Assembly: GCA_002633005.1 (NCBI GenBank)
Contig: NMRA01000006.1
Location: 1,136,442 to 1,200,441, forward strand
From: Phoronis australis
Lineage: Eukaryota > Animalia > Phoronida
Direction: 5' to 3'
Length of the DNA: 64,000 bases
Positions within the stretch are counted from its first letter, which is position 1. Each line of letters begins with the position of its first letter. Shown piece after piece: positions 15,814 through 56,224 of the stretch. A program made the translations under genes and the position numbers. The notes under the pieces were generated by a model, which was given only the letters and a program-made list of their open reading frames with translations, made no database searches and was not told where the DNA came from.

Positions 15814-15990
15814 TAAGTATTATCGTTGCACATCAATAGAGATTTAACCATGAAGTTCTTTGTCTTAAATCCAATAACTTTAAAACCCAAGTTGCTTCAT
15901 GGTGTCAGGTAAATGACCCACAACATGGGTGACTGAACAGGTGTTTTAGAAAGTTCAAACAAAGAGTCAACTTACTTTCAACAGACCCGT

Positions 15991-18900: not shown

Positions 18901-19867
18901 TTTTGGCCCAGATATTGAGCTTATGGAGCAATCTTGTGCCTCGTGTCAACGCAACCAATCGTCGCAACAAAAAGAGCCAATTCTGCACATCGAAGCCCAG
19001 CATCCATGGGTTGTCATTGGTTCTGATTTGTTACAGTGGAACAATAACTCATACATACTGATCGTCGACTATTACAGTTCATTCTGTATTGTTCCCAAGC
19101 TTTCGTTTATGAGTTTGTCAAGAATTATACAACAACTACGTAAAAATGGTATCCTGGTATCCCACATTCCTTTGAGAGCGATAAGAATCCACAATACAGC
19201 AATGACGAATTTCGAAGATTTGCTGAAGAGTATGATTTCAAGCATGTGACTAGCTCCCCGCACTGTCCTCAAGCTAATGGAAAAGCAGAAAGACAGAAAG
19301 AGATGTCTCTAAAAATCGTTAGAATATGGAGATGATCCACTACTATGTCTATGCACTATGCCCATTGACCCTGGATTACCTTCTCCAGTCAAATACATGC
19401 TCAACCGGAAGGTTTGTTCAAATCTACCTGTCGTCAACAACAAAGAAAAGGAACTTCCATATCCTGCAAAGTCCACAAAGCAAGTTGAATATTACAACCA
19501 ACATGCAAGACCACATAAAGACCTTAGTGACAACCAACACGTCAAAGTGCAAAACCCTATCTCTAAGAAATGGGAACCTACGACAGTCGTAAAGAAGCGT
19601 GAACAAGCACCTCGCTCATACATTGTTCGCAAATCTACTGGCGTTGAAGTTCGGCAAAACTGTCGACACATTTGTTCTACGAAAGAAGAGCCACAGCCTC
19701 CCGATGACTACACCCCATACGTGGAAAAAGTCATACAACTGAATGTGCAAGGAGAAGCAAAACACCTGGATGTGCCCGATGGAATGTCAACCACTACGGA
19801 CGATGGTCTCTACCACACCAGATCGGGACGAGCTGTAAAGCCCGCTGCGAGATTTCACGACATGTGA
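15991..19867 (+). pseudogene. Disrupted gag-pol of the Gypsy element
   Basis: ORF pieces 15991-16515, 16963-17304, 17273-17659, 18217-18492, 18502-18918, 18923-19249 and 19358-19867 in Gag-PR-RT-RH-IN order. Confidence 0.9.
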
Positions 19868-26278: not shown

Positions 26279-29200
26279 ATGACCCTGGATGGTGATAAAG
26301 GCCCAGAGACATTAGAGGGCAGTCCAGTAGCTGCAGATGTGGTTACACAATGGAACTTTCAACAACGTACCAAACCCATGATTCATTCTGCTGTAGATCC
26401 ACCCCTGTGTGAAAAATGCCAAGAACTCGACTTGTCTTTCTTTGATCCAGGTAAGTTGTCGTTTTTGACAAAACTTTTGGACAGGTGAGGAAGATTGTGG
26501 TGGTGCTGGACAGGAGCTTAGGGGTATTACATCCCCAGTTATTGCTGTTTGTGAGCGAATAGTTACTTTGCAGCCATATCACAGTTCATGGGATACAAAT
26601 GTGTTTTCCACAGCCACCTTTGTGAAAATTGAAATCAGCCTATCACTAAGCAACCAGGGCTTGTTGACCTAATTTAGTTATACCTCATGGGTTCAATAAC
26701 AGTTTGATTTTTTATATTAATTACAAATTAGACAGATCTATATGGGGCATAGGTATATTAGTTACACTTTAGTCACCCTGCTCACAAAGACATAGTAGTC
26801 ATATTTTAGTCACACACATACACACAAGGGAGGATATTATTCACAATTTAGTCATACCCATAATTACAATGATATTTGTCCGTATATTAGTCACAAATTA
26901 ATCACATTTGTCCAGTATATTATGGAACTCTGGCTATAGATCACATATTCTAAGACCTCTTAGTCACATTCTAATCATAACTTATTATTTAATCACAGAC
27001 GTATTGGTCATATTTTAGTCATTACTGAAGCTTTAGTCATGACTAACCTGTGGCAAGAGCAAGGCCAAATTGGTAGTTTTTGTGCAAAAAAATTATAGTT
27101 TGAAAATATGTCAATTGGAGCAATTGCTCTCGTAGTCTTCTTTCCTTAGTTGTTCGTATCCTTCTCTTAGATAAGATTAGTTAGTGCAGATAGTAAGTGC
27201 AGATAGTTAGGTCAGATAGTTAGCGGACCAAACTATAATTTGTTCTCACACTCCCACCATGATATTAACCTGTCGTTTTTAGAGACAAAGCTTGGAAACT
27301 TGGTTTGTCAGTGCTATCATGTGGATCACAGGAAATATTTTGAAAACGGTTGTGAATTTGTTCCCGAACTATGAGACAGGAAACTGCTTTTGACATATTG
27401 ATTTTCATTCTTGACCAACACTGTGCTTGCAAGATACACAGTTTCATTATGGTTAAAATTCATGAATAACCTATTAAATGAGTCACCCGTGTGTACAGTA
27501 CTGCTTTATGTTTCCAGGCTGCCCAGGTTGTTTACAGATCCTTCAGTCAACATCTACCAGTATTGCTGACATTTTCGCTATAATTCGACAATGGACGGCT
27601 CAAACACAACAAAACATTGAACTGTTTACAAGAGAGGTATATTTGATTTTTAAGCATATCACATAACGTAAATCCTTGTCCGTGCAACCAGTGCACTAGA
27701 ATTGGAAACACCTTTGTGCTTTCGCAATGCTTAAGAGTTGGATGTCAAACGTTTTGTGTTGCCTAAAAATTGTGAGTGACAATCAATATTCCACCTAATA
27801 GAGCAGTTGTCATTTCCCAGATCATGGTTAGTGAAATTGACCGAAATGTGAATAATCCAGAGTACATTCAGTGTTCAATAAAATAAGACTAAACTGAATT
27901 ATATGCTTATAAGTTCTGTCCTTTGTATAAATGTGTGTACTGTTTCATCAGATTTTGAAGAGAGGTGCAAACGTAGATGATCGTGATGGTCTTACTGATA
28001 TGACTCTGCTGCACTATGTGTCCAAGGCAGGCACGCGTGGGATGGCTGACCTCGACACTGTCTGTAGGCTGGCCTCCATGCTGATTGACATCGGTGCTAA
28101 TGTATACATCAGGTGTCGATGGACCAATATGACAGCACTGCATTATGCAGCCTACTTCAATGTGGTGCCTGTTATGGAACTCCTTCTCAAAGCCAGCCAG
28201 GGATTAGGTATACTTGTTATTGCAAAAGGTGTTTGGAGTTACTTAACAACTTTCATCACTTAGATGTTGTGTCTTGCCTTGAAAAATAATAACATTATGC
28301 AGATTTGGCTTAGAGCATGAAAACTAGGATGACCTTTCAGTAAACGAAGAATTAAAATTGGCTCAGAATCTCTTTCCATTAAGTTAACAGTAGTATCTTC
28401 ACAAATTTTTCATCTTAAGCCTTTCAACTTGCTGCCTTTTAAATTGTTTCCATGCAAATGTTTGCAGATGTTGACAGCCGATGTTCAGAATTTGACAATG
28501 GTTCCATGCAAATGTTTGCAGATGTTGACAGCCGATGTTCAGAATTTGACAATGGTTCCATGCAAATGTTTGCAGATGTTGACAGCCGATGTTCAGAATG
28601 TGACAATGGTTCCATGCAAATGTTTGCAGATGTTGACAGCCGTTGTTCAGAATTTGACAATGGTTCCATGCAAATGTTTGCAGATGTTGACAGCCGATGT
28701 TCAGAATTTGACAATGGTTCCACCCTTCACATCACCTGTACTAATTTGGCTTATGAGGCTAGCCAGTGTCTACTTACTGCTGGAGCTGATCTACAGACCA
28801 AGGATGACCTGGGCAGGACACCTCTAGGTAAATATGAAGTGGGCATGTGTAGGATTGAAGCTTTTTGTAATATGTAGTCTGCAGCCACCATTGTCTATGA
28901 AACGGGACTCTGCCAACAATAAGTTTGATGGGTATGACACTCAGTCAGGTGTTTCTGACAATTTTATAATTGATGTTTCTTGCTTTGTCCATCTGCTATA
29001 AAGACAATATTGAGATGGCTGCAGAGTGACAAACTGGGTCCACTCTTTCAAAACACAGATTTTGATTGCCCATATGCGTGTAAATCTTTGCTATGTATGC
29101 TTGTGTTGAAATGTTTTATCTGAATATGTTGCACAGTCCTTGCACTTACCATCTCGTTTTGGTTTCTCAAGAATGTATCCCCAAGGAGGATGAGTACCCA

Positions 29201-32200
29201 GACATCCCAGATGTGGCAGCACTTGTCAACAAACTTAAGACGCTGTTAACTGAGGCTGGTTCTGTCAACCGTAAACAGACGCCAGCCAACTATGATAATG
29301 TGAGCGGGAAGGTGACGCTCCAAGCGCTGGGTGTGCAGCTGGGGGAGAAAGTGATGGTAGGGGGAATAAAGGTGGGTAAACGTAACCCTAAATGTAACCC
29401 TGAATGTAACCCTGAATGTAACCCTAAATGTAACCCTGAATGTAACCCTGAATGTAACCCTGAATGTGACCCTAAATGTAACCCTGAATGTAACCCTGAA
29501 TGTAACCCTGAATGTAACCCTGAATGTAACCCTGAATGTAACCCTGAATGTAACCGTGAATGTAACCCTGAATGTAACCCTAAATGTAACCCTGAATGCC
29601 CCCTTGTTGGATTTAAAACTTCAGAAAGTGTGTTAACAAATGTCCTGTGCAAACACTTTGTCACATCAATCGGACAAAACTGGACCTTGAATGATACAAA
29701 CAATCAAGCATAAAAACAGAAGAAAAAACGTCACAGAAGATGTAGTTATGGACTGTAAATGTCGTTTTTGTTCACTTTGATAAACAATTAACTTATGCAC
29801 AACACCAAAAAATATCTGAAATAATCTGAAAATCCTTCTTTGGTGTAATGAGCAGCATACTTTTTAATACAGATTACTTCCTTCATATAATGAGGGCTGC
29901 TCCAGTAAAATCGGTATGGGAGGGGGGAAGGCACCTTTTTTTCGCACCCACCACCCATATTTTTCATTTATTTCTTCAGCCTACCACCCGTAATTTTTTA
30001 TAAGTTTGAAATGCAACCACCCGTAATTTTTTTTTTTGTTCTTTTGGTTGACTGCACAGGCGCTTGAGTTTATCTGTTCTTCCATTACCACTAACGTCAT
30101 TCATTACTGAGAAAACATATCTTTCATATATATGGTTATTAGCCATCGAGAAATTCGAGCACCTGTGGTTAAATGGTGTTATTATGGGCATGCCGATGAG
30201 GAGATCGGAGGGAGTGAAAAAGTCGGAGCTCTTTGCAAGTTGCATTTTTGTTTCAGTTTTTGATTCTGTGCGGATTGTTTATAAAATTTACTAAAATTAC
30301 CCATCATCAAACATTTATGGCCCAATGAAACTACAACGACCTGTAAATTTTAATTTTTTTGAAGTACGACCACCAGCCATTTTGAATTTAAATCAAACGC
30401 AACCACCCATAAATTTTTATTTCAGTTGCCTTCCCCCCCCTCCCACACAGATTTTGCTGGAACAGCCCTGATATAAACCAAATGGGCAAACTTCCTATTT
30501 GTGTATTTACTGTCTGTAGTGTGTGAAAAACATTGATTAGCTGAGTTTTTGTCTTTCCTAGGGTGGTACCCTACGCTACTGTGGTCCCACTGAGTTTGCC
30601 ACGGGTATTTGGGCTGGTATTGAACTGGATGAACCAGAGGGGAAGAATGATGGAAGTGTGGCAGGCTTTTCATACTTCACCTGTTCACCCAAACATGGTA
30701 ACCTTGTCAAGTAGACAATTAGTACAGAACTGTGGTGGCTGTATTTAGGCCCATGCACCCCTATGTATGTGAAACTAGTTCTGTAACGGCTGTATTTAGG
30801 CCCTTGCACCCCTATGTATGGGAAACTGCACTTTTGTTCAGATTCAACTGAATAAATGTGTGTGAAACACTTGGAGTAACACAAAGAAGTAAGCATCGTC
30901 AGATTGAGTGTTATTGTAGACATAAACCTATAAATAAATGTATTTCTGGTAAGTTGATCATTAAGTTATGGATTTGAATCTCTAACCAGATGCCCGTGTA
31001 AATTACTAGTTATGTCAACGCAGAGAACATGTTTGTGGCAGGCTGTAATGTTGTTTTGCTGCTGAATGATTTGCGACATTATGAAGATTATTTTTGACAA
31101 GATTTATCAAGGTTTTAAAATATTTAGAACTTAAGACTGGGTTACACAGCAACGTATTCAATTTCCAGAGTACACTGTTTAGTTTTCATTCGTTTGGTTT
31201 ATTGCAAATGTACAATCATGACACTGCCTTACTAATACATGTTTTGAATTGTGTCAGGAATTTTCGCACCCATCTCCAAAATTAGCAAGCCAGGTAACTC
31301 TGCCAGTGGTTACACTACACCGTCCAAGGGTCCTATTAACCGTGGGAAGATTGAGGTGTCCCATGTGATGGCCAAAGTTGACACAGGTAACGTGGTTATG
31401 CGTAATGTGTTGTGTGAGAAGCGAGTCTCAGTGCTTTACAATTTGTGTAAGGTCAGTTAGTTCATTCTGGTCTGTCCTTTTTTGTGTGCCTGTTCAGGGA
31501 TATTCCTGGACTGCACATTTGCACCATTAGCACATGAAAAAATAAGAAGGCATAAGTACGTTGCAGCAGTGCCCCCCCTCCCCAGGCACATTTTTTAAAC
31601 ACAACAGTCTTCCAAAAATGCAACTTAGTCTGGTAAAATATTAGTTTTCTACAGGCAGGCCTATCTCTAGATGTATGCTCAGTGGAAATATATAAGGAGA
31701 ATTTTCCACAGATATGCTTAACATTTGAGGAACATTTGCATGGTTGAATCCTAAAACTATCCCCAAGTTTCACAAGAAATGGACATCAAACCTGTAACAA
31801 AGTAAATGTTCAACAACAAACTCCTACTTGTCGGGATAATTATACATTGACAATTTTTTAGATTTGAATTCTCTTGGTCTCAATTTGCTCGCGAGTTGTG
31901 GTACTGATACACTTGAATGTATATCTGTCACTTCCAAGTCATGAAGACGTATATTTAGATTTGATATTTTGTCCCTTAACTTTTCCAAATATACACCCCG
32001 AGCTTGTCAACAGAAATCTCTTACAATAAGTTAAGAGTTACTTATAGTATTTCAAAAATATGACGTTTTGCACCATCCATCTGTAATTCAGTTGGATCAA
32101 GGACCTGTCATATTTATCAGCTCAGCTAAGACTATTGTTTTCCAGTAATGTCTGTAAAATCGCAACATTATCCTTCCTTGATGTGTGCAACTGAAAGTCT

Positions 32201-35200
32201 TATTTGAATTCTAAGAAGGACTGTCTGTGCAAGTTAGATTTCTAATTTTGCTCAGTTAAGCATAATTTTATCTTCTGTCCTCTGCTGTGTATGTCAAGAT
32301 GGATGTTAGACCAGCCCTTGTTTGCATTAAACATTCAACATGTTTTAGAAGTGAACAGCTCTTCTTGGACTGTGTGGTTGGTTCTTAAAAGAACCATTGT
32401 GTGTCAGCACCAGCTAATGGCCCTGTCCCTGAGGTCCAGACAGCTTGGCCAGTTGAGTGGTGACTTCATTCATCTCATTCAGCACCATGCCACGGTACAT
32501 GGTGTATACATTCACCAGACCCTCTAGTATGGTGATGCGTAGCTGGATGTTGTAGGACATGGCAGCGTTCCCCCGACTCACCGCCCTCCTATGTCTAATG
32601 TTCAACCCTCTCAGCTCCCTCTGCAGAAGGTGGCTCTGTTTCTCAGCACAGCTCTGCTTAACATTCAACTGAGTGTACTTGTCAACTATTCTGGTAGCCT
32701 TCTTGGACCACATCACTCTTTCTCACTATGAGACAGACTATGGCAGCCAGCTCTTGACACCCTTCTTATATCCTGGCTTGAACTGCTTCTCCCTAGTAGT
32801 CATCTACACCTTCTTCTCTCTGACAGCAGTTGAGACCCTAAGCTGTGACACTGTCATCTTCAGGGAGTCGTCTATTGTTCACCTGAGCAAAGGTGTGAAT
32901 CTGAAGCTCCAGGAGGCTTGAACTCCTATAGTGTCAGGGGATTAGTGTCTGGGGTTGGTTGGTGGCACTGAGCTGAATAATTTGTGTTAGTTTACTCATT
33001 GTCTTCATTTCATTTTTACTCATTGTAGTAGCCACAGTGATCATAATCAAGGTCCAGTGTACTGTTATATAACCATCTGCTCAAGTCTGTATTGAGACAT
33101 GGGACCACTATTGTTGACTGGCATCTCATGGGGAGTGTGTTGCAAATAACCTGGGGAAAGTATGACTGGCATCTCATGGGGAGTGTGTTGCAAATTACGA
33201 GAGGGGAAAGTATGACTGGCATCTCATGGGGAGTGTGTTGCAAATTACCAGAGGGGAAAGTATGACTGGCATCTCATGGGGAGTGTGTAGCATATTACCT
33301 GGGGAAAGTATGAATGGCAGACCAGACTTCAGCTAGCTGAATGGTGATTGAGTTGAGAAGGAATTTGTAGTGTTTAGTTCATCAGGGGCCACTTTTTATG
33401 AAATTTTTCAGTCTAAGTTAAGAAATCGAGTGAATTTAAAACCAAAATGTCTTAGCCCTGTTTTTATGAAATTTCATGAGAAGACTGAAAGTTAGCCTGC
33501 TAAAGAATAGGTTTAAGATTGAACTTTTGATCTAAATAACCAAAATCTAGAAATGTTATCACTGTAAACTGTTGAAGAGATAATTTCGTTGAGATTTGTT
33601 ACAATCTGGCTGGTGTCCCTAAATATTGTATAATTGAATATCGTCTGGTTTCGATTTGAGAACGATCAAGCCAAAGGCTGTAGAGACAATGCAGTGCAAC
33701 CTACCGGCACATTTGAAATGACATTTTCCTGCAGCCTTATCAGGGTGTTCTGAAGCAAACAAGATCTCAATTGTATTCAAAATGTAAATAAATCCTCATT
33801 TAGAGTTTCAAGACCAAAATTATTCTTGAAACTGTATTTAACAAACCACCTCGCTTAGTTTTGTTAACTCGTAACAGGTACTGTAACAAAAGCATAGTCT
33901 GTATGCTGCCAAAATCAACTTATAATTTCTGTCTAAGTTAAGACTGAAGACCATAATCCGACATTTGTTCATCCAGAAATGTTAAGCAACTTTTATGTCT
34001 CACTATTTGACAATCTATTTTCAAGTTGCATTGTATAATCATTCCAACAAACTTTTGTGTGTGATGCAGAGATAAACACTCCATGTCATGAAATCTTGTT
34101 TTCATCTATAATGAGTTCGCTGCTCCATTGCTTTGCCAGGTCTCAGAAGTGGTAGATCACGAACACCTACACTAGATGGTGCCAAGGAGTTTGAGATGGG
34201 TGACAGGGTAATTGTTGCGGGACACAGGAAGGGAGTGATAAAGTTTGCCGGAGAAACTAAATTCGCTCCAGGTATGGAAATGCCCTTCATTTCATTTCAT
34301 TTTGTTACACAGTAATAATTTTAAATTACAATCATATGTCAGATTTGTGATGGGCGTATCTTCACTTTTCCAACATGTCCAATAGCGGAGACATCTGCAG
34401 ATTGAACTACTAAGCAAACATTGCTGGAGCTAGCTGATTTTCAATGTTTAAGCTTCTTGATTTGTGAGCAATCCTGTTGGTTATGTATTTACTGGGAGAC
34501 ATTGACATAAATTAATGTGATGCTGTTAAAGTGACTAATAATGTAATTATGTTCCATCATTAGAGACAATAAGACCACTTAATGTAATGAAATAGGCCTC
34601 AAACTGTTTCTTAGTCATAGTAAGTGTCATTTGTAAACTTGGAAAGAAGTGTCAGATTGTTATTGCTGGCGACCAGGCTCCGCAAATTGACATATCATAC
34701 GGTATCATTTTATTTGCCATGCATGGTCTCCAGGAACAACTGTCAGCTTTTTCAAGACCAAAAATCACTTCTCATCTGAGTAAGGAACGATTTGAGACCA
34801 ATTTTATTGCATTAAGTGGTCTTATCAAAAAACTTAGTTTCTTCAACATAACGCGGGTTTGTCATCGCGTTAATTGGAAGTTTGTCGTTTTTATGGTAGA
34901 CTGTTTTCCTCTGTTTATTTCTCAGTGAAATGACTATCTTGTGTATACTGTAGCTTAACAAGTCATCCTTGGTCACTACCACGCTACGAACAAGTGTATT
35001 TCTGCCAACTGTTGCCTCTCAAAAACACAGAAAGCAGTTGAAAAATGGCGATAACATGATTTTGCACAAAACAAAATGTAGATAAGCCCTAAAGAGGAAA
35101 CGCTTTTCATCCTGTTCTCTTGTTTTTTTCATCCTTGTTTCCAGGTCGTTGGTATGGTATAGAGTTGGACAAAGCTGTTGGAAAGAATGATGGAACAGTC

Positions 35201-38200
35201 AATGGGGAGCGCTACTTCACCTGTCGACCAAAGTGTGGCGTGTTTGCCCCAGCGTCCAGAATACAAAGGTGAGATCCTGTGACATAATCAGTAACACAAG
35301 AGTTAGAACAGCTGACTGACTACACAATGTACCAGGGTTCTCATAATACCCAGCTTCTGTAAGAATTTGTTATTTAGTCTACATTCTTGAAACTGTCCCT
35401 TACACTTGTTTACTTGCTTCCTAGGTTGGGAAGGACAGCCACTCGGTTTGTTATTGCTTGAGACCATGCCAGGTGGATAAGGTGCCCAGCTGAGTTGAGC
35501 TGTCTATTCTGATCTTGTGCACAAACAACTTTTATGAAGTGAATCCTAAACATAGGGACTACTTTTGTCCTCGATAAAGAACATGTTGAGATCATTGTGC
35601 ACCACCGTGGCATTATAATTTATTATAATTTTTTAGGTTTACCATTTTCAGAGTTCTTTGACAGATTTTTCAGAAAATTTGGCAAATAGTTATTTATTAA
35701 GAAGACAACAGCTTTCTATTTTGGATGTATTAGGTGCTCCACCTAATGGGGAGTTCTGTTACTTTCAAGTGGTGCATCTTAGTGGCATTTTTGTTGTTGT
35801 TTTTTACATCCACTGTATCTCCTTAGCCCCTTGCCAGATCTTTGTGTAAAATATGACAAAAGTATGGTTATCTCTTTGGAAATATTGTAGATGATTGGTA
35901 TAACAGCTGCCATAGCTGACAATGGATACCTGACCTACTTAATGAATAGGACAGATCATATCCCAGTCCTACCACTGCTCTGTTGACTAGAAGGACTCTG
36001 AACAAAAGATAGAGGCAACAGGGTCATGGACAATGTTAACTTTTATCCCTGCAATAGAGGTCTTTTCATAATGGCATGGTCTAAAGTATAAATGAGACCA
36101 AGAAAGCAACTCAGATTTGGTGGGCAAAAATTCACAACTACCGTATTTGCCCTAATAAGCGCCCGAAATTGCCCCATTAAGTGCTTTCAGATTTCGTTAA
36201 AATAAGCGCCCAGCCCATGGACGTGTCCCTTACATAGATTTCTTNNNNNNNNNNNNNNNNNNNNNNNNNNNNNNNNNNNNNNNNNNNNNNNNNNNNNNNN
36301 NNNNNNNNNNNNNNNNNNNNNNNNNNNNNNNNNNNNNNNNNNNNNNNNNNNNNNNNNNNNNNNNNNNNNNNNNNNNNNNNNNNNNNNNNNNNNNNNNNNN
36401 NNNNNNNNNNNNNNNNNNNNNNNNNNNNNNNNNNNNNNNNNNNNNNNNNNNNNNNNNNNNNNNNNNNNNNNNNNNNNNNNNNNNNNNNNNNNNNNNNNNN
36501 NNNNNNNNNNNNNNNNNNNNNNNNNNNNNNNNNNNNNNNNNNNNNNNNNNNNNNNNNNNNNNNNNNNNNNNNNNNNNNNNNNNNNNNNNNNNNNNNNNNN
36601 NNNNNNNNNNNNNNNNNNNNNNNNNNNNNNNNNNNNNNNNNNNNNNNNNNNNNNNNNNNNNNNNNNNNNNNNNNNNNNNNNNNNNNNNNNNNNNNNNNNN
36701 NNNNNNNNNNNNNNNNNNNNNNNNNNNNNNNNNNNNNNNNNNNNNNNNNNNNNNNNNNNNNNNNNNNNNNNNNNNNNNNNNNNNNNNNNNNNNNNNNNNN
36801 NNNNNNNNNNNNNNNNNNNNNNNNNNNNNNNNNNNNNNNNNNNNNNNNNNNNNNNNNNNNNNNNNNNNNNNNNNNNNNNNNNNNNNNNNNNNNNNNNNNN
36901 NNNNNNNNNNNNNNNNNNNNNNNNNNNNNNNNNNNNNNNNNNNNNNNNNNNNNNNNNNNNNNNNNNNNACCATTGTGCCCCCTAGTGGCAATTATTTTTT
37001 ACATTTACCTCTGTATCTTTAAAGGTCGTCTACAGATTTTTGTGAAACTTGGCATATAGGCACCTGTTAGTAGGATGATGCTATATTCCTGTTTTCGGAA
37101 GGAGTCAAGGTATTTTGCGCAACCTAATAACCATTTTCACTGTTTTTTGGCATCCGCCTCTCTATCAACCAAACCGCTTTTTAAGATGATTGTAAAAATT
37201 GGCATGCATGGATTTTCTTACTATGAAGAGAAAGCCTGACGATGATTTTCTGATTAATCTGGCTACTGTGGCACCTCCTAGTGGCAGTTTATTGGCGACA
37301 TGATGCTATCTCCTTATTTTCTGATTTATTTGAGACATTTTGCGCCACCTAGTGGCCATTTATGTTTTTTCCAATCGTTTTTTGGCATCTGCTCCTCTAT
37401 CAACTAAACCATTCTATGGATTATTGTGAAAATGGATATATCTGTCCTCAGTTTGAAGAGTATGGCTGACGATGACGACTAACTACTGTGGTGCCTCCTA
37501 GCTTTTTTGCGCCTATAGCTGTATGTCCTAAGCCTACTGCAGGATCTTAATTAAATTTAGCAAGTATATTCATATCATGTTGAGAACAGATATTGACAAC
37601 TTTCAGGTGCATTGCCCCCTAGTGGCCATTCCATTTTTTCCGGTCTTCCTTTGTTTCTGTATAGTTTCTTGACAGATTTTTATGGAAATTGGTAAATATT
37701 AAAGAAAAGATGTATCTGTTTTCGGATGGAGTTGACATGTTTTGCGCCATCTGATGGCCATTTTTATGATACAAATATATGTCACAAGAAGCATGCTGTT
37801 TGTGATGCCCAATTGCTTCAAAATTTTTCGCTCTCCGGCAGCCTTTCGGCGGGGCTCCCTATATTAATATAGGGGGCCCCGCCGAAAGGCGACCGGAGAG
37901 CGGGGCCCCCTATATTAATATAGGGGGCCCCGCCGAAAGGAGGCCGGAGAGCGGGGCCCCCTATATTAATATAGGGGGCCCCGCCGAAAGGAGGCCGGAG
38001 AGCGGGGCCCCCTATATTAATATAGGGGGCCCCGCCGAAAGGAGGCCGGAGAGCGGGGCCCCCTATATTAATATAGGGGGCCCCGCTCTCCGGCCTCCGT
38101 TCAGCGAGGCCCCCTATATTAATATAGGAGGCCTCGCTTTCGAGGTCCGAAATTCAATTTTTTGCTTATGTCATTTTAATAAGAATAAGTCATTTTAAAT

Positions 38201-41200
38201 AATAAGCTGTTTATAGCTTTTTCGGATGGATGCAACTGTCACTGTGCCTCAGAGTTACAATTCTATTTGTTAACATTTGTCTCTGTATCTTTGGAGTTCC
38301 TGGGCAGATTCTCATGAAATTTTGTGAATAGGTCTCTATTAGGGAGACACTGGGGACTCTTCATTTTAGTGGCCATTTTTGATCTTTATTAACACCCCTG
38401 GAAGCATGTTTTTTGCGGTGCCATCATGGACACATTTCAATGTATCATGAATAACTTTAGCTTATTAAGTTGATCGCATAATTCGATAAACATCATTCTA
38501 AGTAAAAATTCTTGGTTATAGGATTGGACTTGGTCGATCATCGTCAGTGGAATCTATAGACTCCATCCAAGGTGACTTGGTAGACAAACTCAGTGGTAGT
38601 TTGACTAGTGTAGCTAGTGCTGGTCGGTCAAGAACACCAGTCAGCAGTGGCCGGTGAGTACCAGTGGTCATTATGTGGTCAAGAGTTATATTTGAGGGCT
38701 TGGGGCTTAAACCTAATTGAGCATTTGAGGTGTTTAGTAAGTCAGTTGTAGATGGTCATTAAGCCATGGCAGGTAATAACACGGAACTGATGACTATATT
38801 TCCAACCTGTTTGTGAGGTGAAATTACCTGAAATTACATGTCACTGAACGAGGGCATTGATGATGTGTATCTCTTATCTGCCCTCTTGATGGATTAGATG
38901 GCCTGGAGTAGGCCACTATACATCATGATCATTTGAGTTCAGGTAGTCAAAAGTGGTCCCCAATGCCACCCATTATTAAGTAACTGTACCTCCTCATACC
39001 TCCAGGTGGCAGCAGTGTGGTCACTACCATGTGATCAGTTCTAATTGCTTAACGATGTATAAGTTGTCTAAATTTTAATCAGTTTTAAGCAATGTTCTCT
39101 TGTTGGCAATCTCTTTAGAAGTCCTTGTTTGACTGCAAATAATGAGTGCACTGGGTATTAACTGATACAGCCCTTGAATACGCACTAGTCAATTAGAAGT
39201 TAAGTTTCACTTGAAAAGTTACAAGCATTTAACATTCTTAGTTTGGCAGTCGCCAATAAAAGCCAGATATGCTAGATAGTCGTTACCAGCCTTGTCCCCA
39301 AACCTCAAGATTGTGCTGTTAGTGATCAGTTTAAGCATTTGAGCCTTGGTGAGGAAATGTCCCTTCTGCGTGCTGATTGGCCCTAGGCATCTCTCGAGAT
39401 GTTCCATCGATTTCCGTAAACCTTAGTTAGAATCATGGCAAGTGAATTTGTCTTCACCAAGACTCAAATGGCTAAGCTAATCAGCGCCATCTTGAGACTT
39501 GGGCACAAGGCTGTAAGTGTTACCTTCTGTTGTGGTTCTTTTCTTACATGTTTTCTACACCAATCAGAACAAGTCTTTTTGTTAAACTGTCAAGTGTTTG
39601 ATAATGGGTATGATGCTGTAGGCCTAATGTATAATGTATTTTCTGTCGGAGTTAAAATTGTATTACCTTCACGTAGCATGTAATGAACATTTCAACTTTC
39701 GGCATATTTGTTTTTTTTTCTGATATCACTAGTCTAACACCAGTGACTAAACGCAGCAGTTCTGCCTCCGGCCGATCAAACACAGTTATGAAGAGAAGGT
39801 GACATATTGCATTGGCCATGGGAACGTGTCGTTACTTTTTGTTCACGTCTATTTTATTTTTTATGCACACAAATTATTTTGGTGCCAGTTTTCCTACTTC
39901 ATTGTAGTTATTAGTTAACGGTGGTCTTTTTGTGTCATTTTTTTTCAAACCAAGTTTGTGTATTTGTCAAAGTTTAAATTTATTTTCCGCACTCTGCTGC
40001 ATTGTATTATTTAGTGTTGCACGCTTTAGCAACCCAGGACCTGTTGAGTTTGTAACCAGTTGTAGCCAAAAGCTTTATACAATGTACATGTCCAATGTTC
40101 GTAATTCAGTTACCTTTAAGAGTTAAAATGTGGTAAGGTATGCGTTGTGCCATGTTTCACTGTCTTGTCATCGTTCATTACCATGTCTGTTCAACTGCCA
40201 ATTTCATTTTCACTACTATCATTGTTTCCCTTCTATGTTACTTATGTAATAGAAACTAAAGCAATATCTAATACTTTAACAATTAAGTATTATTTGAGTA
40301 CAGTTGCAGAATCTCATTTAAACAACAAGTATAAGCTAGTCTGAATTATGAGATTGCACTAGTTTCTTTGTATGGTAAACTCTCACCAATTTCAGACACA
40401 ATATGACCGATGCTTTCCCGTGTTCATGTTTTGCACCACAGCTGCTATCAGACAACATTTTGAAAAGTAATGGTTATTCATGTCAATGTTACAATCCCTT
40501 GAAAAGTGAAAACAGGCATTTTTGAAATTATTTTTGTTCGAAATTGGTGAGATATTACTGTAAATTTGAAAGACCTTGAAGAAGTTTGTAAAGTTTATAA
40601 TTCAGAGTTACGTACTGACAGCTGCATGTACAAATTATCAGAAGCACATTTTTTTCCACATAACCACTTTGCTATGTTTCTTAATCCTACTTAAAGGAGC
40701 ATGCCACCCAAAAAACAACCTAATTTGTATCAATTTAGATCGAGTAGTTCTACTCCATAACAACACGTACCGTTGCGTTACCTGACACCTGACGGCAGAC
40801 GGAGATGTTGAAATTATCCAATGACGTCATCGGTTTCACACGCAGTCTGTTCAGCACTGTATGTCACACCTGTAACAATAAAATTCCCCAATAACAAAAA
40901 AGAAGATATCTAATTCTCATTAAAAGTTTGTCCGCCCACAGTCAGATCTGAAGGTTGACCAATAGCATTGTGGTTATGCCTTGTGACAGTAAGTAGTTTT
41001 TACACAACTCAACAGTAGCTATAATTTACTGATAGAGGTTGTTTGTGTCACACTTAGACAACTGCTCATTACTAGAGACATTTCATACTAAGCACTTGTT
41101 GTTTGAAGAATGTCAGTAAAGTCGCACCAATACAGGATAATACGCCTGTCAGGTGAGTTTTGTTTCTCACTTTTTCATAAGTGATACATAGTGCTAAAAA

Positions 41201-43374
41201 GATGCTTTGTGATATTCAAGTTGTGTACCATGGCTACCAACAGATATTCTGAAAATTTGTGGACTGTCACACCAAATGCTAGAAACAGCCCTTGAAAAAT
41301 GAAAAAGTCCTGTTTTGACAATTATTTTTGTCTGAAATTGGTGAGATTTTACCTTTAGTTAGTGGATGTTCAGACTGGTTTACTTGTCTAATAGACATGA
41401 TACCACATTTGCCATAATATATTTTATTCTATATTGATTGCAGGTCAGTAAGCCATAAGCGAGCTGTTGCTAATGAGGACTTAAGACTGACTGAAGGAAT
41501 GAATGTGTTCTGCAGTGGAGAACTTGGTACCTTTAATTATATTTCTCAAGTGAAGTGTGAACTTATGAAATGTCAATGTTATGTTCAGTTGTTTTGTGAT
41601 TATTGTCTGAGTATACCTTGACTTTTCTTTCAATGTAGTGAGACCATTTGGTTTCGCAGTGGGTTAAATTTAAATGTCTCGTTAAATACAGGTGAGCATT
41701 ACCTTTTGAAGGCAATTTTGTTCAGTTTGGCATGTTTTACTTACTCAGAAATGTATTTGAATCTTTTTGTTGATTTTTATCCTTGAATAGGAAGTGTGAT
41801 GCTGTCAGCATGTTACACAGTGCAGACACTGAGTGTGACTGACTGAATCACTCGTGTTGAAATATGCCTAAAATGTGTCCACACACACATCACGCACACG
41901 CACCCACACGCACCCACACGCACACACACGCACACACACGCACACACACACACACTTTCATAATTATGTTGCTGTGTATTGTCATCATGTCCAGGCATCC
42001 AGTTTTCCATTCGATATCTCAAAACCCCTAGAGTCGGCGCAAGTTTGTTGGGCATCACTATTACAGTGCATTCCACTTTTTTATCTACCCCCTCCCCCCA
42101 GGCCAGTGGTTTTGGGGAAAAGCATTTCCCAATGTTATCTGGTTATCTGTAGAAGCGATGGACAGATTTCAATGAACCTCTGTATGGTATTTGGAGATCC
42201 AATTGTCGGATTTCGATGAAACTTGTCACAAAGGTATTTGATGACAATGCGCTGGAACCAGTTGATTTCCAGGCAAATTTAGTTACAGCGGTGCGCCTTG
42301 TTTGACTATCCACTTTTTATGAGAAGAGCATTTTCCAGATTTCTAGAGAACTGATGGACTTTAATTAAACTTTACAGAGATATATGACTGCAATTTGCCA
42401 CCACTTATCGATTTTCAGATGAATTCAACATCTGCAGAACCCTCTAGTCACTGTTTTGTCCTGGACGCAAGGTGCGTTTCACTATTTTTTTAGCAAAGGA
42501 TCATTTCTGGGTGTATGGAGAACCGATTGATGGATTTGACTCAGTGTTAGGTGACAGCAATGCTCCAGGATTAGTCATCTTTGGTCAGATTCGACCAGTC
42601 ATGCAGCGTTCCTTAGTAGCCATTTTGTTTGGTTACCTTGTTTTCTGGTTGATATCTCAAAAAACCAGGGTCGTATTTTGATTAACTTTAATACTAGGGT
42701 GTAGAGTATCAATAGGGCGGTGCATGTCAATTTTTTGTCATTTCTGAAAAAAGTCATGCAGCTACCTCATATTGTCAAATTGTTATGCACTGTCGGTGTA
42801 TATTAACGCTTTGCATTGCACTTGTACTATCTGTTTCTGGCGTCATTGCTTAAGTCAGGATATCACTGTGTAATGGGCTGGGCTGAAAGTTTTAGGGATC
42901 TTGGTTGTTAAGCATGGTTATGTGAACTGAAAAGCTTATTTTTATAGATATCAACTGAAAAGGCTTAAATACCTTTCATGGCAAGTAAAGCATGCCATAT
43001 TGATCAAAAGGACATTCAAAAAGTAACATGCCATTTTAGTATTGAAATAGAGTGAACACCACCTTTGACCAAATCCAAGAGATGTGCATAAAGATATGTA
43101 CAAAAGTCATAAAGCTTACAGCTGCTCACTGTTCTTTGCAGGGGTTGTACGATACATTGGCCAAGTTGACTTTGCCGGAGGAGTGTGGTTGGGTGTGGAA
43201 TTGCGCACACCCAAGGGCAAGAATGATGGGTCAGTGCAGGGGCGGAGATATTTCACGTGCAAGCCAGACCATGGTTTGATCGTACGTCCTATCAAGGTGA
43301 CCGTCCGTGGTATTAACGGGGCTAAACTGTTAGGGGACACAAGTCAGTATTTGAAAAAGGAAGAATCTGACTAA
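26279..43374 (+). CDS. CLIP4: CAP-Gly domain-containing linker protein 3/4 (ankyrin repeats + 3 CAP-Gly), about 641 aa, 13 coding exons
   Basis: Phase-consistent exons 26279-26450, 27518-27636, 27952-28207, 28684(or 28468)-28827, 29172-29371, 30562-30697, 31258-31386, 34140-34271, 35145-35268, 38522-38653, 39733-39798, 41444-41526 and 43142-43374. Motifs [32 protein letters not shown] and three GKNDG CAP-Gly motifs. Confidence 0.9.
28448..28722 (+). repeat. 54-bp x5 tandem duplication spanning the CLIP4 intron/exon junction
   Basis: Unit ttccatgcaaatgtttgcag|atgttgacagccgatgttcagaatttgacaatgg at 28448, 28502, 28556, 28610 and 28664. Confidence 0.95.
29383..29597. repeat. 12-bp minisatellite (tgtaaccctgaa), about 18 copies
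   Basis: Seen directly, starting just after the donor at 29372. Confidence 0.95.
29894..30468 (-). mobile_element. PIF/Harbinger-like MITE, copy 2
   Basis: Reverse complement of 15236-15813; TSD TGA (29891-29893, 30469-30471). Confidence 0.85.
32414..32803 (-). pseudogene. Intronless disrupted ORF of unknown family, antisense within a CLIP4 intron
   Basis: Reads [40 protein letters not shown]...[20 protein letters not shown] in a single frame with three stops; composition is coding-like. Confidence 0.5.
33113..33320. repeat. About 50-bp tandem repeat x4 (gactggcatctcatggggagtgtgttgcaaat...)
   Basis: Seen directly in the sequence. Confidence 0.85.
36245..36968. other. Assembly gap (N run)
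   Basis: Run of n characters. Confidence 1.
37830..38137. repeat. GC-rich 51-bp array with six 34-bp palindromes
   Basis: gcggggccccctatattaatatagggggccccgc repeated, with spacer cgaaaggaggccggaga in either orientation. Confidence 0.95.
41810..42825 (+). mobile_element. Helentron-associated (HINE/DINE-like) non-autonomous element with CA/CACG microsatellite
   Basis: Microsatellite at 41880-41955 near the 5' end and a 3' end reading ...gcattgcacttgt. Family assignment is inferred. Confidence 0.4.
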
Positions 43375-49366: not shown

Positions 49367-52300
49367 TTACCACGATGTGTAATCAAAAGAGTCCTCTCGA
49401 GAAAACACGAAAAAGTACGCCAGAATGGTGAGAAACACCACAGTGTTCCCACTTAACACTAAAGCACATGCTTGCCACTGGATCTGTAAAGGAAACCAAT
49501 TCAGATCACAACTGTGTACTACATGAAACCCTGTTTTAGCCAATTAGCGGCATATTTACGATGGCTTCCATCACAAAAAACTTTTGATTTAGACCACTTA
49601 AATTATTAAATCAATCTCAAATTGTTCCTTAGTCAAAATAGATGTGATTTATTCGATACCAGACTCAACAAGTTGATTTGTCACAGCGTGTCAATTTTAG
49701 TTTATTTACCAACCATATTAATGAACTGTCAGTTGTTTGCAAGACCATCATCTCGGTAAGATACGACTTGAGATCAATGTTATAGCATTAAGTGGTCGAA
49801 ATCAAAAGTTATTTTCTTCGACAGAACAAGGGTTTATAGCCACTTAAACTCTCTGAATTCAAACAAAATACCTTGAAATTATTGCAAATATTTTTTAGTT
49901 ATAATTACCATCTCATTGCCAGTTTTCTATTTCCTTTGCTTTGCATTTACCTAGTTAGGACTGTCTTTGTCTTTAGAATGCCTTTAAAACCATAACCCGA
50001 GTGAAGCCGTCAAAATTTGAAGCACAAATGGATTGTCGAATGCTCAGATAATTTCAGGGGTGAGTGACTTTTAAAACATCATGAAATAGTTAAACTAATC
50101 TCTAGCAGTTTTTAGGGTTGGTCAACATTCGCTCAATGCAAAATGATGCAATTATGCGAGTTATCGGAGACAACTTTTACTGATTTCAATTCTCAGGCAA
50201 ATCTTTGCAGACAATTTTCGGCCTTCTTATTTTTGGCCTTCTTATTTCCGATGCTTCAAGCAGTTTTGAACATCAGATTCCTAATAAGTACATGGGTGTA
50301 TTTGAATGAAATATGATTTAACTTGTTTTATGGCCTCAGAACCGTGTATAAATTGTTTTTTATTTTCCTTCGAACCACCAGGATATCATCCATCAAAAAT
50401 AAAAACTTGAGACATTATTTGAAAAATGGACTTTGTTTGAGGGTAAATGAAAAACAAAATTTTTCATATAAATGGCAGTTGTGTGGATATTCACAAAAGC
50501 GCAGTTTTCAGACATGAAGTAAGACTTCTCAATAGCTCAGGATTCATATTTTCATCCATTGAAATTAAGTTGCTAAAAAGTTATTGGATGAAACGCGATA
50601 GAACCTGGTGATAGATGAACTATTACATTTAAGTGACTAGCACCACAATTATCAATCTCTGAATATAGCTGCATTCAATGACTTATTTTGTGTGAAGGTG
50701 ACGAGACAACTCGAGTCCGCACGATATCGCTATCCATTGCAGCAATGCAGCAAACAGAGCAGCTCCTACTTTCACTCACAATTAAACAGGACAATACATA
50801 GCTAACTCACCACAGAGTGGGATAATGGCGCATGTGCTAGCACTATGGGCAGGCCATACGCTGAAACAACAATGGCCGCTGTGAGGAAGAGACACGTCTC
50901 AACTAGGGCACTACTCGTTGTGTCCTCGGCATATCGGCGACAGATAAAGGTGGGTACAGGTGACAGGAAGTAAAAGATAAGCACAAACATGGGCCACCAG
51001 TTACTGTAACGAAAACATGCCAACCAATGACAGGATACAGACCAGACTGCAATGGTAAATCTCAATTTAAGACTAGAAATAAAGCATAAGCATACCCCTG
51101 AAGTTTCCTTTTCTAAGTTTTTCACAAAAGATATGTAGCACCAAGTTTAAGCTTTACCATGTTCAAACTCTGTACCATAGCTACCATCAGACAATGTTTT
51201 CAAAGACTAGGGGCAAACATGACCGTGTAAAAGGGCCTGGAAAAATGAAAAAGGCATTTTGGCAAGCTGCAACTATTTTTGCCTAAAACTTCTGAGATTT
51301 TGGCACTACATGAATGCAGTACGTGTAAAAATTAAGAGGACAAAATGACCTGGGAATCTACGTCTTAACAGTTAATTTATCTGTAATCTGTTTCTTAAAT
51401 TGCACATAGCACAAACATGTTTAGATCAGACATGGTAACAAATAAGTCATATCTTTGCGTTACTCATACTAAGCTATGAGGTGCATGTGTACTAGTTCAA
51501 GCATTCGGCCGTTCAAATCTGTTGAATTCCTTTCAATTAAATTGAATTTCTCAGCCCTGTTGGATCTGTAAGCAGTTTTAACTGTACTACAGTGATTCTA
51601 ATTAGAAAATATGAAAGTTACTTACAAGTACAGGGCACATCCTAGTACCAGAAAAGTTATACCAGTGGCAGCAGCAAAGGCCAGGAGTACAATGCTGCAA
51701 AACAATAAGAGAGTGACAGAGTTCAACAATAAGAGAGTGACAATTCAACTATAAGAAACTGACACAATTCAACAGTATGAATCATCAACAGCCTTCGAGT
51801 TTGTCACGAGTCATACAGCGTGCTTCTATTCACATTGAGTACCATGCATATCGCTAAGGTTATATGTGACCTGAAAAAAGTCCAAATTTGGATAACTTTG
51901 AATGATCATAACTCAGAAATGGTTGATTAGATTCAAACGAAACTTTCATATCTTGTAATTGATGCACTGTTTTTCAATATCTTGCTAATAGTTGTTTTTG
52001 AAATGATCCACCCTGGCACACGGGACTATCAAACATTGAGATTTTTATGATTTATATAAAAAAACAACAAAAATGAACATGATAGTCTAATTTTAGAAAT
52101 TGTAGTCACTGTCTTCGGGACTTCATTTTGAAAATTTACATGAAAGAAAAACTGGTCACGATGACGATTAGTAACACGCAGAGGTTTGGTGATGTCCGAA
52201 GCGATTTCTTTTATATTGGATGCAACTTTCTCCACTCAAATGCATGGACCTTTGTACTAAGAAAAATAAAAAAGATGAAACATAAAATAGAAACTTTATT

Positions 52301-55096
52301 CAATCAGTCACATTTTCAAACAGTTTATTCATAGTTGATTGGAGTCCCCGATAAGGATGACCTGGACTGTCATCCTATGCCCTTCCCCCCTTCTGCATGC
52401 TACTGATAGTGATACCTTTATTTTGCTAAGACTGTACCACATAACCTTAAAAATACAGGACTGGTCTTGCCTGGTTTCTCAACTATTTCAGTCAAATAAC
52501 AATTCCCCAAATTGACACCGGCTCTATAATCAAAAATGAAGAAATTTTAAAACACTTCTGCTGGTAATTTAGATTTTATAGAACAAAACTTAATCATGTG
52601 AATTCATAAATTTAGTTTATACTGTGTAGCTCACTAATGTAGTCAGTTTCTGTACCTTAGTCAACAACCAACAAGTCACACGGTATACAGAACAACCAGT
52701 CAGTATAATATCATCTGAAAAACTGCCATTGTATTTCAAAAGGAATCCATTGTGTTTTAAGACTGTAATCTTGAAGCGAAAACACAGAGTGCCTGCTTCA
52801 GTGTTAAATGCAAGTACTTACGCTGTGTATTGACAATATCAGATAACCACAGTGTCCAGGTGAAGAAGTCATGAAATAGAGAAAAAGGAACTGATAATTA
52901 TGAAATATGCAATTGCACAGCTACTAATACTTCTGTATTCTGATAAGGTAGTATACAGTACGATAACTTTCGTTATACCATAATACTGACCAACAACCTG
53001 GCCACGGAATATCACTTTTTATTCATGTCGCGATCTCACCAATAAGACCCTGTAGATTCCATAAACCTTGACAACAAAGGGAGTAGATGTCAATACAACA
53101 AAGCAGGAAAAAATAAGCCTATTTAATGTGATGAAAAGCTAAAAGGAAAGAAACATCAATGGTAGTGTAATGAACCAGGTCATGACTGTGACAATGGTGG
53201 TGTAATGGAACAGGCCAAGACTGTGATTATGGTGGTTTAATGAAACACATCGTGACTGTGACAATTGTGTTGTAATGACTCAGGCCATGACTGTGACAAT
53301 GTTCGGGCTGAGCTGACTAATCTTTCACTTGTCTAACATTTGAAAGTGAGCTTTTCTGATAAAATGTTGTTTGTTCATAACATTTCTGCCCAACAACATT
53401 AATTCTAGGCTCACGCTAGCCGCTCGCCAGCTCGTCATTGGCGAATTTTGAGCGGCACTGGCAATGTTAGAGCTAAGTCCACTCGCCAACTTGGCAAATG
53501 CTTTCGCAACTTGACAAACGAATTAATTTCAGGAAACCTACTCGCGTGTCAACTCAGTCAGCTCGAATCAAGTCGCGTCACCAACAACATTCTGACGGTA
53601 ATTCCATTTGGAGTCCTAAAAATAGCAAGCGAACGTTCCAGTTTATGCCGATCAGCCCCCCCCCCCACCACTGAAATAGCTCTTTTACTCCAACGAAATG
53701 TTCAACTGTGTAGGGAGAAATCTTGGTAACGGCAATTTCTCGCTTCATAGCGAGATCTTGTGTAAGTGCTTCTGCTCGTTGTGTGCAGGTGACAATGTCA
53801 AAATAAAGAATCAAAGACTATTTCGGTAGCAAACGTGACCCAGTTTCTGGTCCGGAGGTACTAAATTACCCGAGGGATAAAACTGGGCCGAGATGAGCTG
53901 TCTCAAACATGCCAAATGAACTCGGGGCTTAAATTTGTTATTTTCATATTGCATGAATCTCTCCCAATTCATTACCAACTTTCAGCGCATAATTTGTCGT
54001 GTCAAATGTTGTTTGGGACTTAACACAAACAGTTTTTCTTTTTGAGTAGTAAAAGGCGCGGATGACACAGGGAAGAAGGAGTTTGTTATCTATTTTTAAA
54101 TCAAAATATATCACATGTCATACCACGTCAGCTCGCTAGATGCCGCAAGTGCACAATAAAAACAGGGTTACACGGCCCTCGATTATCCAAGAGGAAAGGT
54201 GCCTGTGCCTTCAGAGAGGGGAGTTTTTGGGGGTGAGGGGAGAATTCTACCTCCCAATTACCATCAATAGCACCCCCATTCTGTTGCAAGAGCTCACAGG
54301 CTCTGCCCCTGTTGCAAGACCTCACAGGCTCTGCCTATTGGGCTCTGCCTCAAGTAGATAAAAGTAACATTTGCGCTCTTTCAAACTGTACTGAGTTAAT
54401 GTCCACAGTAGTTAAATAATCCGATGTAAACAGGGTCTTAGTCTGTGCTGCCTCCTCTAGGCTGCAATACCATCAGATTTAGACAGGACCCCAGTCTCTG
54501 GCCTCCTTTCAGCTTCAATATAAATCATCAGAACTAAAAAACACCTCAGTCCATACTTCCTCTTCATTGCTGCAATACATATTATAGGATCTAGACAGGG
54601 CCCACTCTGTGCTGCCTCTTCTGGGCTGCAAGTGCAATACACATTATGGGATCTAGACTACACCCCAGTCTTTGACTTTGCTGCCTCTTCTGGGCTACAA
54701 TACACATCATGGGATCAAAACAGGGCCCAGTCTGTATTGCCTCTTCTGGGCTACAATACACATCATGGGATCAAAACAGGGCCCAGTCTGTATTGCCTCT
54801 TCTTGGCTACAAGTCACTGCCTACATGACTAAGACTGAGAGTGTTGACTGTTGTGTTGTCAACTAAGCTGGTAATGACTAATGGTATACAGCATACAGGC
54901 TATACAGCAGAGCATTTCACGACCAAAATCAAATTATGCGTAAACTGTGCCTGTTTTTGAAGTTACAGCTAAGAATGCGTGTGATTTCTAGAAATATAAT
55001 ATCAGACTTCGGATTCGGCATTAAAACGGTGAAAACTTGGCACAATTTTGGTGAGTTTTTGAAGTTTAATCGATGTTTACCTCGAATCCCTGCCAT
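49367..55096 (-). CDS. LEPROT: Leptin receptor gene-related protein / VPS55 family (endospanin), 131 aa
   Basis: Exons 55096-55081 (MAGIR), 52822 (1 nt), 51694-51626 ([22 protein letters not shown]), 51003-50811 ([17 protein letters not shown]...[14 protein letters not shown]) and 49483-49367 ([20 protein letters not shown]...DYTSW*). Total 396 nt. LEPROT and LEPROTL1 cannot be told apart; likely a co-ortholog. Confidence 0.92.
52822..52822 (-). CDS. LEPROT: Predicted 1-nt microexon (C) of LEPROT/VPS55
   Basis: Minus strand reads ...tatctgatattgtcaatacacAG|C|GTAAGTac. It supplies exactly the one base needed to join exon 1 (phase 1) to the next exon (phase 2) as GCC (Ala). Confidence 0.75.
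53160..53300. repeat. About 35-bp diverged tandem repeat x4
   Basis: atggtggtgtaatg...gactgtgaca units. Confidence 0.75.
54430..54812. repeat. About 55-60-bp diverged tandem repeat
   Basis: ctgggctacaatacacatcatgggatcaaaacagggcccagtctgtattgcctctt units. Confidence 0.75.
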
Positions 55097-56224
55097 CGCC
55101 TGGTTGTGACGTTGCAAAATCTGTGCACTCTCATCTGCAGCGCCACCTCAAGTATGAGAATGTACTAAACGTTCAGCAAGCGGGCACTGCCCAAGTAGCT
55201 TGTCCAACGGAGCTAGCTCAGGCAACACAGGCTGCACATTTCTTGATTTTTGAAAATATAGATATTTTCACATAGACAGCCCCACGTCTGAAGGAGGCCA
55301 TTGATGAAATTCAAGTGGCCACAGTTTTTATGCTTCTATTAACAAATTCTGAAGAGTACGCTCCGGAGGAAGGACCCATCATGTTGGACTCGATTACTAT
55401 TTTCCTGTTTTTTGTGAAATCGTGCAACCAACTTTCACGTTGAAGAAGGTCACTTCCTGCACCGTCGTCTGACCACACGACGGTGGAATGAACTGTCACT
55501 CTTTTCCAAACTTAATGTCGTTTAGGTTTTCATAATTAAGGGGTCCCAATTCAGATGGGACCCTCTTTCGGTGGAGCAGTTCGGAGAATTGTCCCTTTGT
55601 CCCTCAATACATCATGAAATCCGACACTGCCAAGTATTCACGAGGGAATTTGTAATTCGAAATTCATTAAAAAAACAAAAAAAAAACATTCATGCACAGC
55701 ACAGCAGTATCAAGACATTCGACCCAAACAACCAAAAAATGTGAAAAAATACAATAAGATTGACCGCCATCGTAAGGCACTGAGTCAGGAATTTTAAAGA
55801 ACGTGAAGACCGCTGTTTGTTAATTACACAAAATGACTATTTCCGATGGTTAGTCATAAAATAATGTTACTGTTTCCCATATTGTCACAAGAATAGTATC
55901 TCTTTTGAAGATGGTTATTATGAGTTGTAGTTGTATATAAGGAATTCCCACAGGTGGAAAACCGTGCTGCTGTCGAGGCTACCATTGGGGTGACCGTGTA
56001 CATGTTGAACGAGTGTACCCAAATGCTCTCAATAATAAACAAATTAAACAAATATTTCAGCGTTTTTTTGTTTTTTTTAGGTCAAGTGAACCGTTATAGG
56101 TACCTCGGAAATACACCTTATTATAAATGTCTAATGTCCCATTTCGCCCAGTTACCCGTCAAAATCTACAAGCATGGCTACGTAAATTGCTTAAAATATT
56201 CAATTTTGATCAACAAACTCGTTG

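Follow-up and report, generated by a model that had tools for sequence, protein, structure and literature searches.

On the reverse strand of the window, by which we mean the whole 64,000-nt stretch of DNA analysed here, lies a LEPROT/VPS55 gene of five exons, whose coding parts (16+1+69+193+117) form a 396-nt CDS of 131 aa that contains a single stop. On its own, exon 4 reaches a score of 68.6 bits against Pfam Vps55 (PF04133; cut-off 24.6), and the same family is present in 25 of 25 homologues. Four membrane helices and a role in endosomal or Golgi sorting are features of the family and would be expected of this product. No relative was found among viral contigs or genome contigs, and no solved structure in the PDB was found to be related by sequence to the LEPROT/VPS55 product. 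Elsewhere in the window, the forward strand carries receptor tyrosine kinase exons with a kringle and a kinase domain (3312-10453), belonging to a gene which we take to be MuSK/Ror-like, as well as a broken LTR-retrotransposon pol-like region in several frames (15937-19867), one piece of which matches RT_RNaseH. Ankyrin and CAP-Gly exons on the same strand (27931-43329) are probably those of one gene, presumably CLIP3/4-like, which lies tail to tail with LEPROT; this region contains tandem repeats at about 28333-28877, 29246-29703 and 37806-38198 and an N gap at 36245-36968. An exon of proteasome assembly chaperone 3 (PAC3) lies on the reverse strand at 22888-23301.

Features of the LEPROT/VPS55 gene, in the order of transcription (positions are those of the window)
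Feature	Position	Strand	Description
Exon 1, coding part	55081..55096	-	16 nt (5 codons + 1 nt); ends in phase 1; weak GTAAAC donor
Intron 1	52823..55080	-	2258 nt, GT-AG
Decoy island TAG/C/GTGAGC	53415	-	AG 9 nt upstream; pyrimidine-poor; crossed by uninterrupted reads
AG-free zone	52825..52890	-	66 nt; distal pyrimidine tract at about 52862-52890
1-nt exon (C)	52822	-	Between acacAG and GTAAGT; middle base of codon 6 (G+C+C = Ala)
Intron 2	51695..52821	-	1127 nt; consensus GTAAGT donor
Exon 3	51626..51694	-	69 nt; starts in phase 2
Exon 4	50811..51003	-	193 nt; matches Pfam Vps55
Exon 5, coding part and stop	49367..49483	-	117 nt; 3' UTR extends beyond

Without the C at 52822, the reading frame meets a stop after 17 codons. 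A NAGNAG acceptor or a shifted donor was ruled out as a repair of the frame by the absence of nearby alternative sites, there being no other GT or GC donor within 14 nt of the end of exon 1 and no other AG acceptor within 15 nt of the start of exon 3. The preliminary description of this DNA had proposed that the C, spliced as an exon of its own, supplies the missing base and restores a 131-aa frame; every coordinate, phase, intron length and CDS length that it gave held when checked, and RNA reads and the frame translation agree with the proposal. The length so obtained is the one expected of the family (131 aa for LEPROT in the accessible part of PMC5385356), and the N-terminus agrees with that of transcript-type homologues.

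The AG preceding the acceptor of the single-nucleotide exon lies 70 nt upstream, leaving the AG-free zone listed in the table, and pyrimidines make up 86% of positions -40 to -68. A CTGAT branch-like motif has its A at 52839, 17 nt upstream of the exon, and a TGAC branch-like motif within the AG-free zone has its A at 52869; both are candidate branch points. Among shuffled introns, YAG-N-GTRAG is expected in 18% and YAG-C-GTRAG in 2.8%; the 3386-nt span between exon 1 and exon 3 itself contains six AG-N-GT sites, of which one, at 53415, is a second C-bearing site. Being common by chance, the loose motif alone is weak proof, a point missed in the preliminary description, so RNA was needed to settle the status of 52822. 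A further TAG/C/GTAAGA motif on the reverse strand at 48560, about 800 nt past the stop codon, is likely there by chance.

RNA was taken from four runs under one species label, comprising one contig set and three raw-read runs of a single study; about 18-19% of each raw-read run was used, and the label was matched to the window by read identity only. Joints were listed only at >=3 reads, a threshold at which a minor route starting with the upstream intron would escape notice. The joint at 55081 marks the 3' end of exon 1, and eight read ends piled up at 55110 in run X4 indicate the likely 5' end of the transcript at about this position. The edges of exon 3 are defined by joints at 51626 in all four runs and at 51694 in the three raw-read runs, while introns 3 and 4 are spliced in 121 and 48 raw reads, respectively. 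All 32 reads that connect exon 1 to exon 3 (55081-51694; 9+7+16 reads) contain one extra base, a G on the forward strand and hence the predicted C in the mRNA, and the same extra base appears in 13 further loose-end reads of run X4. C-less reads were absent among these 32, in a single study. In the skipped message, the stop is followed by 224 nt up to the last junction, so that the message for the 17-codon product is a likely NMD target; as such a message would likely be degraded, NMD might hide skipping, and the 32/32 count may overstate inclusion of the exon.

The partly spliced product that the preliminary description had suggested looking for, in which the acceptor and the C are followed directly by exon 3, is also present. 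Two reads in run X3 and three in run X4 span a junction between 52822 and 51694 and extend into the sequence of intron 1, with a skip of 1127, an unambiguous cut and 46-49 nt on the short side; as mates overlap, these five reads represent perhaps about three molecules. Narrow read mapping places the beginning of the intermediate reads exactly at 52822 (bin depth 0.74 = 2x13/35); neither joints nor loose ends reached the threshold of 3 reads in this mapping. With the same cut-off no 55081-52822 joint was listed. Across 52590-52799, intron 2 is without coverage in each of the three runs, and intron 1 has a depth of about 1-5 per run. Because the intermediates join 52822 to exon 3, they place the base at 52822 and not at 53415, and the C at 52822 is a real single-nucleotide exon of LEPROT/VPS55, a conclusion that we regard as practically certain. 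In both runs the intermediate reads seem, judging from bin depth, to stop at about 52870 on the reverse strand, adjoining the TGAC motif, at 47 nt upstream of the exon; a reverse transcriptase halted close to a branch point might account for these ends, as might an indel between alleles within the pyrimidine tract, or they may be fortuitous. Short interspersed repeats at 49566-49850, 54180-54340 and 55231-55277 attract many partly matching reads on both strands.

One metagenome scan yielded 57 LEPROT/VPS55 loci, of which 27 were kept and 30 left out (6 spliced transcripts and 24 loci without an exon starting at residue 7). The acceptor of the exon 3 equivalent is in phase 2, as in the window, in 25 of the 27 loci, and the other two (L007 and L044) have a phase-1 acceptor, a single intron and no micro-exon. 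Exactly one copy of a strict island, YAG/C/GTRAGT, lies upstream of exon 3 in 15 of the 25 phase-2 loci (12 distinct loci after removal of near-identical pairs), with a chance expectation of <=0.04 per locus, and it is found in 7/7 of the phase-2 loci where the pattern also located exon 1. The same search gave no strict island in either phase-1 locus, in about 105 kb of downstream DNA, or in any of the 28 sequences when read on the reverse strand. Of the 15 sites, 13 have a GTRAGT donor after the micro-exon, whereas the relatives' exon-1 donors are weak and varied. Across the 15 sites, which are non-independent, the median AG-free zone is 75 nt at the micro-exon versus 35 nt at the next acceptor (p=0.0015), with the pyrimidines set back. 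The island that the preliminary description hoped to find in related invertebrates is thus conserved in its strict form, and conservation of the single-nucleotide exon across Lophotrochozoa is very probable; since 8 of the 12 distinct island loci fall within one clitellate-like clade, the set amounts to only about five independent lineages plus the window.

The strict island is missing in the remaining 10 of the 25 phase-2 loci, and 8 of these 10 contigs do not reach exon 1, so that they are maybe too short and uninformative either way. L015 and its copy L021 show a variant arrangement, with exon 1 followed by a 54-nt intron, a G, a GC donor and a 56-nt intron, resulting in Gly; L015 (80-216), which is AT-rich, divergent and presumably rotifer-like, counts as an eighth locus spanning exon 1. 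Gly is also seen at the same position in Bradybaena and Macrostomum models and in transcript L001. In two other phase-2 loci (L012:345 and L013:37) the sole good candidate is a T followed by a GTACGT donor, which would give Val, and the true island may lie beyond the contig end. L044 (1693-2177) and L049 (3923-4969) are sisters with a support of 99, and the single-nucleotide exon is present in L049; in L044 a lone phase-1 intron is followed directly by this base and exon 3 as one unit, an arrangement that looks like an exact loss of intron 2. This sisterhood implies that exact loss of intron 2 does happen and that absence of the exon can be secondary. In L007 (8-300), which we take to be cnidarian-like, a single phase-1 intron follows exon 1, and the equivalents of exons 3 and 4 have no intron between them. 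At L029:1141-1496 the start of exon 4 is repeated three times in tandem.

The canonical LEPROT start is absent in 33 of 35 named mollusc, annelid, nemertean and brachiopod protein models, and the single-nucleotide exon offers an explanation for these wrong N-termini. The faulty lophotrochozoan models diverge immediately before residue 7, with Arg at this place in seven and Ala in twelve, Arg being the residue expected from read-through of a phase-2 acceptor. Mytilus models are of both kinds, and a Mytilus-like sequence from assembled reads has a normal start. Among 38 vertebrate clusters (sequence clusters, and not a sample of species), 19 are canonical, and the other 19 have Ala before residue 7 in 13 cases and Arg in none. 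Outside the lophotrochozoan group, three proteins (P0228, P0190 and P0232), whose group we take to be arthropod, have an Arg-Leu read-through or an insert at the same junction and may mark the single-nucleotide exon in arthropods. In a quick tree, in which 4 of 59 branches are starred and none of the starred ones places the window, the window groups weakly with Capitella and clitellates (83 and 86, unstarred), and L043 groups with heterodont bivalves.

The acceptor AG of the single-nucleotide exon also forms donor positions -3 and -2, so that U2AF and U1 cannot occupy the site together. Given this overlap, the two introns have to be handled in turn, and the intermediates, which retain intron 1 although 52822 has already been linked to exon 3, suggest a downstream-first order. 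In the model that we propose, the strong GTRAGT donor would offset the poor base at -1 and intron 2 would go first, after which the C would be the first base of an ordinary 70-nt exon; the long AG-free zone with its distal pyrimidine tract would protect the acceptor and keep it base-exact, and intron 1 would be removed second. A precedent for such a layout is the 4-nt exon of human MPC1, for which the accessible part of PMC9929638 describes an upstream zone of 67 nt, a distally placed pyrimidine tract, and branch points at positions -68 and -64; there, the exon was still spliced in HeLa cells when cut to 1 nt, and the downstream intron was excised even with a mutated acceptor. Taken as a whole, we are confident in a one-base spliceosomal exon with an in-frame role, spliced in two steps with the downstream intron first and of early spiralian or older origin.

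Several other accounts of the extra base and of its splicing deserve consideration. The C might derive from the 53415 island, where a C also stands between AG and GTGAG and which mature reads alone cannot separate from 52822, or from a longer exon of 3n+1 nucleotides; both are very improbable. The longer exon was rejected because mature reads show exactly one additional base, and the decoy at 53415 was rejected on the intermediate reads, which map to 52822, while the reads that cross 53415 show no joint and no loose end there; that island also lacks the AG-free zone and the GTRAGT donor common to the relatives. Still further from credible is an assembly error, with a base missing at an exon edge, or RNA editing by C insertion: the phase mismatch recurs in independently assembled relatives together with the island, the intermediates read through the genomic sequence of intron 1 as far as the C, and no indel is listed at either exon edge in the RNA reads. 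Both were rejected. The order of splicing is less firmly settled, although removal of intron 2 first is probably the main route. The exon might be real and the upstream intron removed first, in a recursive-like manner that keeps one base, or both orders might be used equally. Either order regenerates usable sites, recursive splicing is the route suggested for APC11 in the accessible part of PMC4674806, and with so few intermediate molecules a slow side product can be over-represented. Nevertheless, we consider this unlikely, as the sole joints seen, in two runs, are downstream-first, intron 2 is uncovered beside the exon while intron 1 is covered, the micro-exon donor is stronger and more uniform than the relatives' exon-1 donors, and potato invertase loses its second intron first (cited in PMC4674806, in the portion available).

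The single-nucleotide exon probably goes back to an early spiralian ancestor or an older one, and how much older is a finely balanced matter. It is about an even proposition that VPS55 has had two introns one base apart since the common ancestor of plants, fungi and animals, with the exon surviving for more than a billion years among land plants and spiralians, and probably also in arthropods and early fungi, with an exact loss of the downstream intron in vertebrates and others, and with a fixed downstream-first order. Somewhat less probable is an independent animal origin, in which the protostome or spiralian line, already possessing an old phase-1 intron, acquired a second one a single base further downstream. 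The latter would fit the single phase-1 intron of L007, which lies outside the lophotrochozoan group, and of L044, the phase-1 read-through of the non-canonical vertebrate models, and the distribution in the green lineage, where Zygnema has the plant VPS55 exon and none is predicted in Chlorophyta (PMC11096116 and bioRxiv 10.1101/2023.01.31.526407, as far as their accessible parts go). However, L044 is the sister of the exon-bearing L049. Moreover, omission of the plant exon costs 13 N-terminal residues (accessible part of PMC8831610), which puts it within the first 13 codons, and its donor is the same GTRAGT; this fits codon 6, without proving it. It would also be a great coincidence for a feature of such rarity to arise twice near the beginning of one small gene. 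The codon and phase of the plant exon were not found in the text or searched supplements of PMC8831610, PMC12409088 and PMC11096116, the first of which, in its accessible part, shows the position in figures only. No plant-type VPS55 sequence was recognised in the best 150 of 720 representatives, a search of the aphelid region gave two matches, and the ESM Atlas names a Streptophyta-rich cluster.

The window provides an RNA-supported natural single-nucleotide exon in an animal nuclear gene. None was found in print, in a full-text search of largely open-access literature, and none is described in the accessible parts of PMC8632122, PMC7392893, PMC12780178 and PMC13128491; likewise, the accessible part of PMC9929638 reports that no natural 1-bp microexon was found in human, and that of PMC3064661 mentions unverified 1-bp exons in old annotations. 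With kilobase introns exon definition is the usual model, and it cannot operate on one base, so that a natural gene becomes available in which the order of splicing and the location of the branch can be tested directly.

Among known systems with sites of similar form, recursive splice sites are zero-length exons, in which an acceptor and a donor abut behind an AG-free zone and an upstream pyrimidine tract. The window site differs in that one base is kept, and only downstream-first joints are seen. Neural SRRM4/eMIC microexons have a frame-preserving length, regulated inclusion and a UGC motif near the acceptor. In contrast, the exon described here is 1 nt long, which is not a multiple of 3, and is required for the frame; TGC occurs 0 times at -8 to -45 of its acceptor, and 19 times over 13 sites versus 8 at the next acceptor. 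The introns of placozoan mitochondrial cox1 are of the self-splicing type. A single-base exon has been described in that animal gene (accessible part of PMC5436844), which differs from ours in being mitochondrial and not spliceosomal.

Closer parallels come from spliceosomal exons of other kingdoms. Arabidopsis APC11 (PMC4674806) and the fungal P450 gene CYP621A of Fusarium (PMC12940212) each have, according to the accessible parts of these papers, a constitutive single base between AG and GT that is needed for the frame, and in CYP621A, as in the window, it is the middle base of a codon and leads from phase 1 to phase 2. They differ from our case in gene and kingdom and in size, both introns together measuring 422 and 139 nt, respectively, and the APC11 exon was shown by mutagenesis, whereas the window exon is known from RNA reads and conservation. 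Which of the two introns leaves first is stated for neither gene in these parts. Human MPC1 shares with the window a frame-shifting second exon, long introns, a zone of roughly 67 nt and a consensus donor, and differs in its natural length of 4 nt (PMC9929638, accessible part). A further parallel is plant VPS55, assigned to cluster 2 by Yu et al. 2022 (PMC8831610), whose 1-nt microexon the preliminary description had mentioned and the accessible part of that paper bears out. Plant and window genes belong to the same family, have the exon near the N-terminus with a GTRAGT donor, and were missed by annotation with wrong N-termini as a result; the window differs in its animal host and kilobase introns. 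In early land plants, the form retaining the upstream intron codes for a second protein (PMC8831610, accessible part), whereas the intron-1-retained form of the window has an in-frame stop six codons upstream and no Met; the second protein is not universal in plants, so its absence does not decide homology. If the animal and plant exons occupy the same site, they would represent an extreme conservation of intron position and a sharp marker for exact intron loss.
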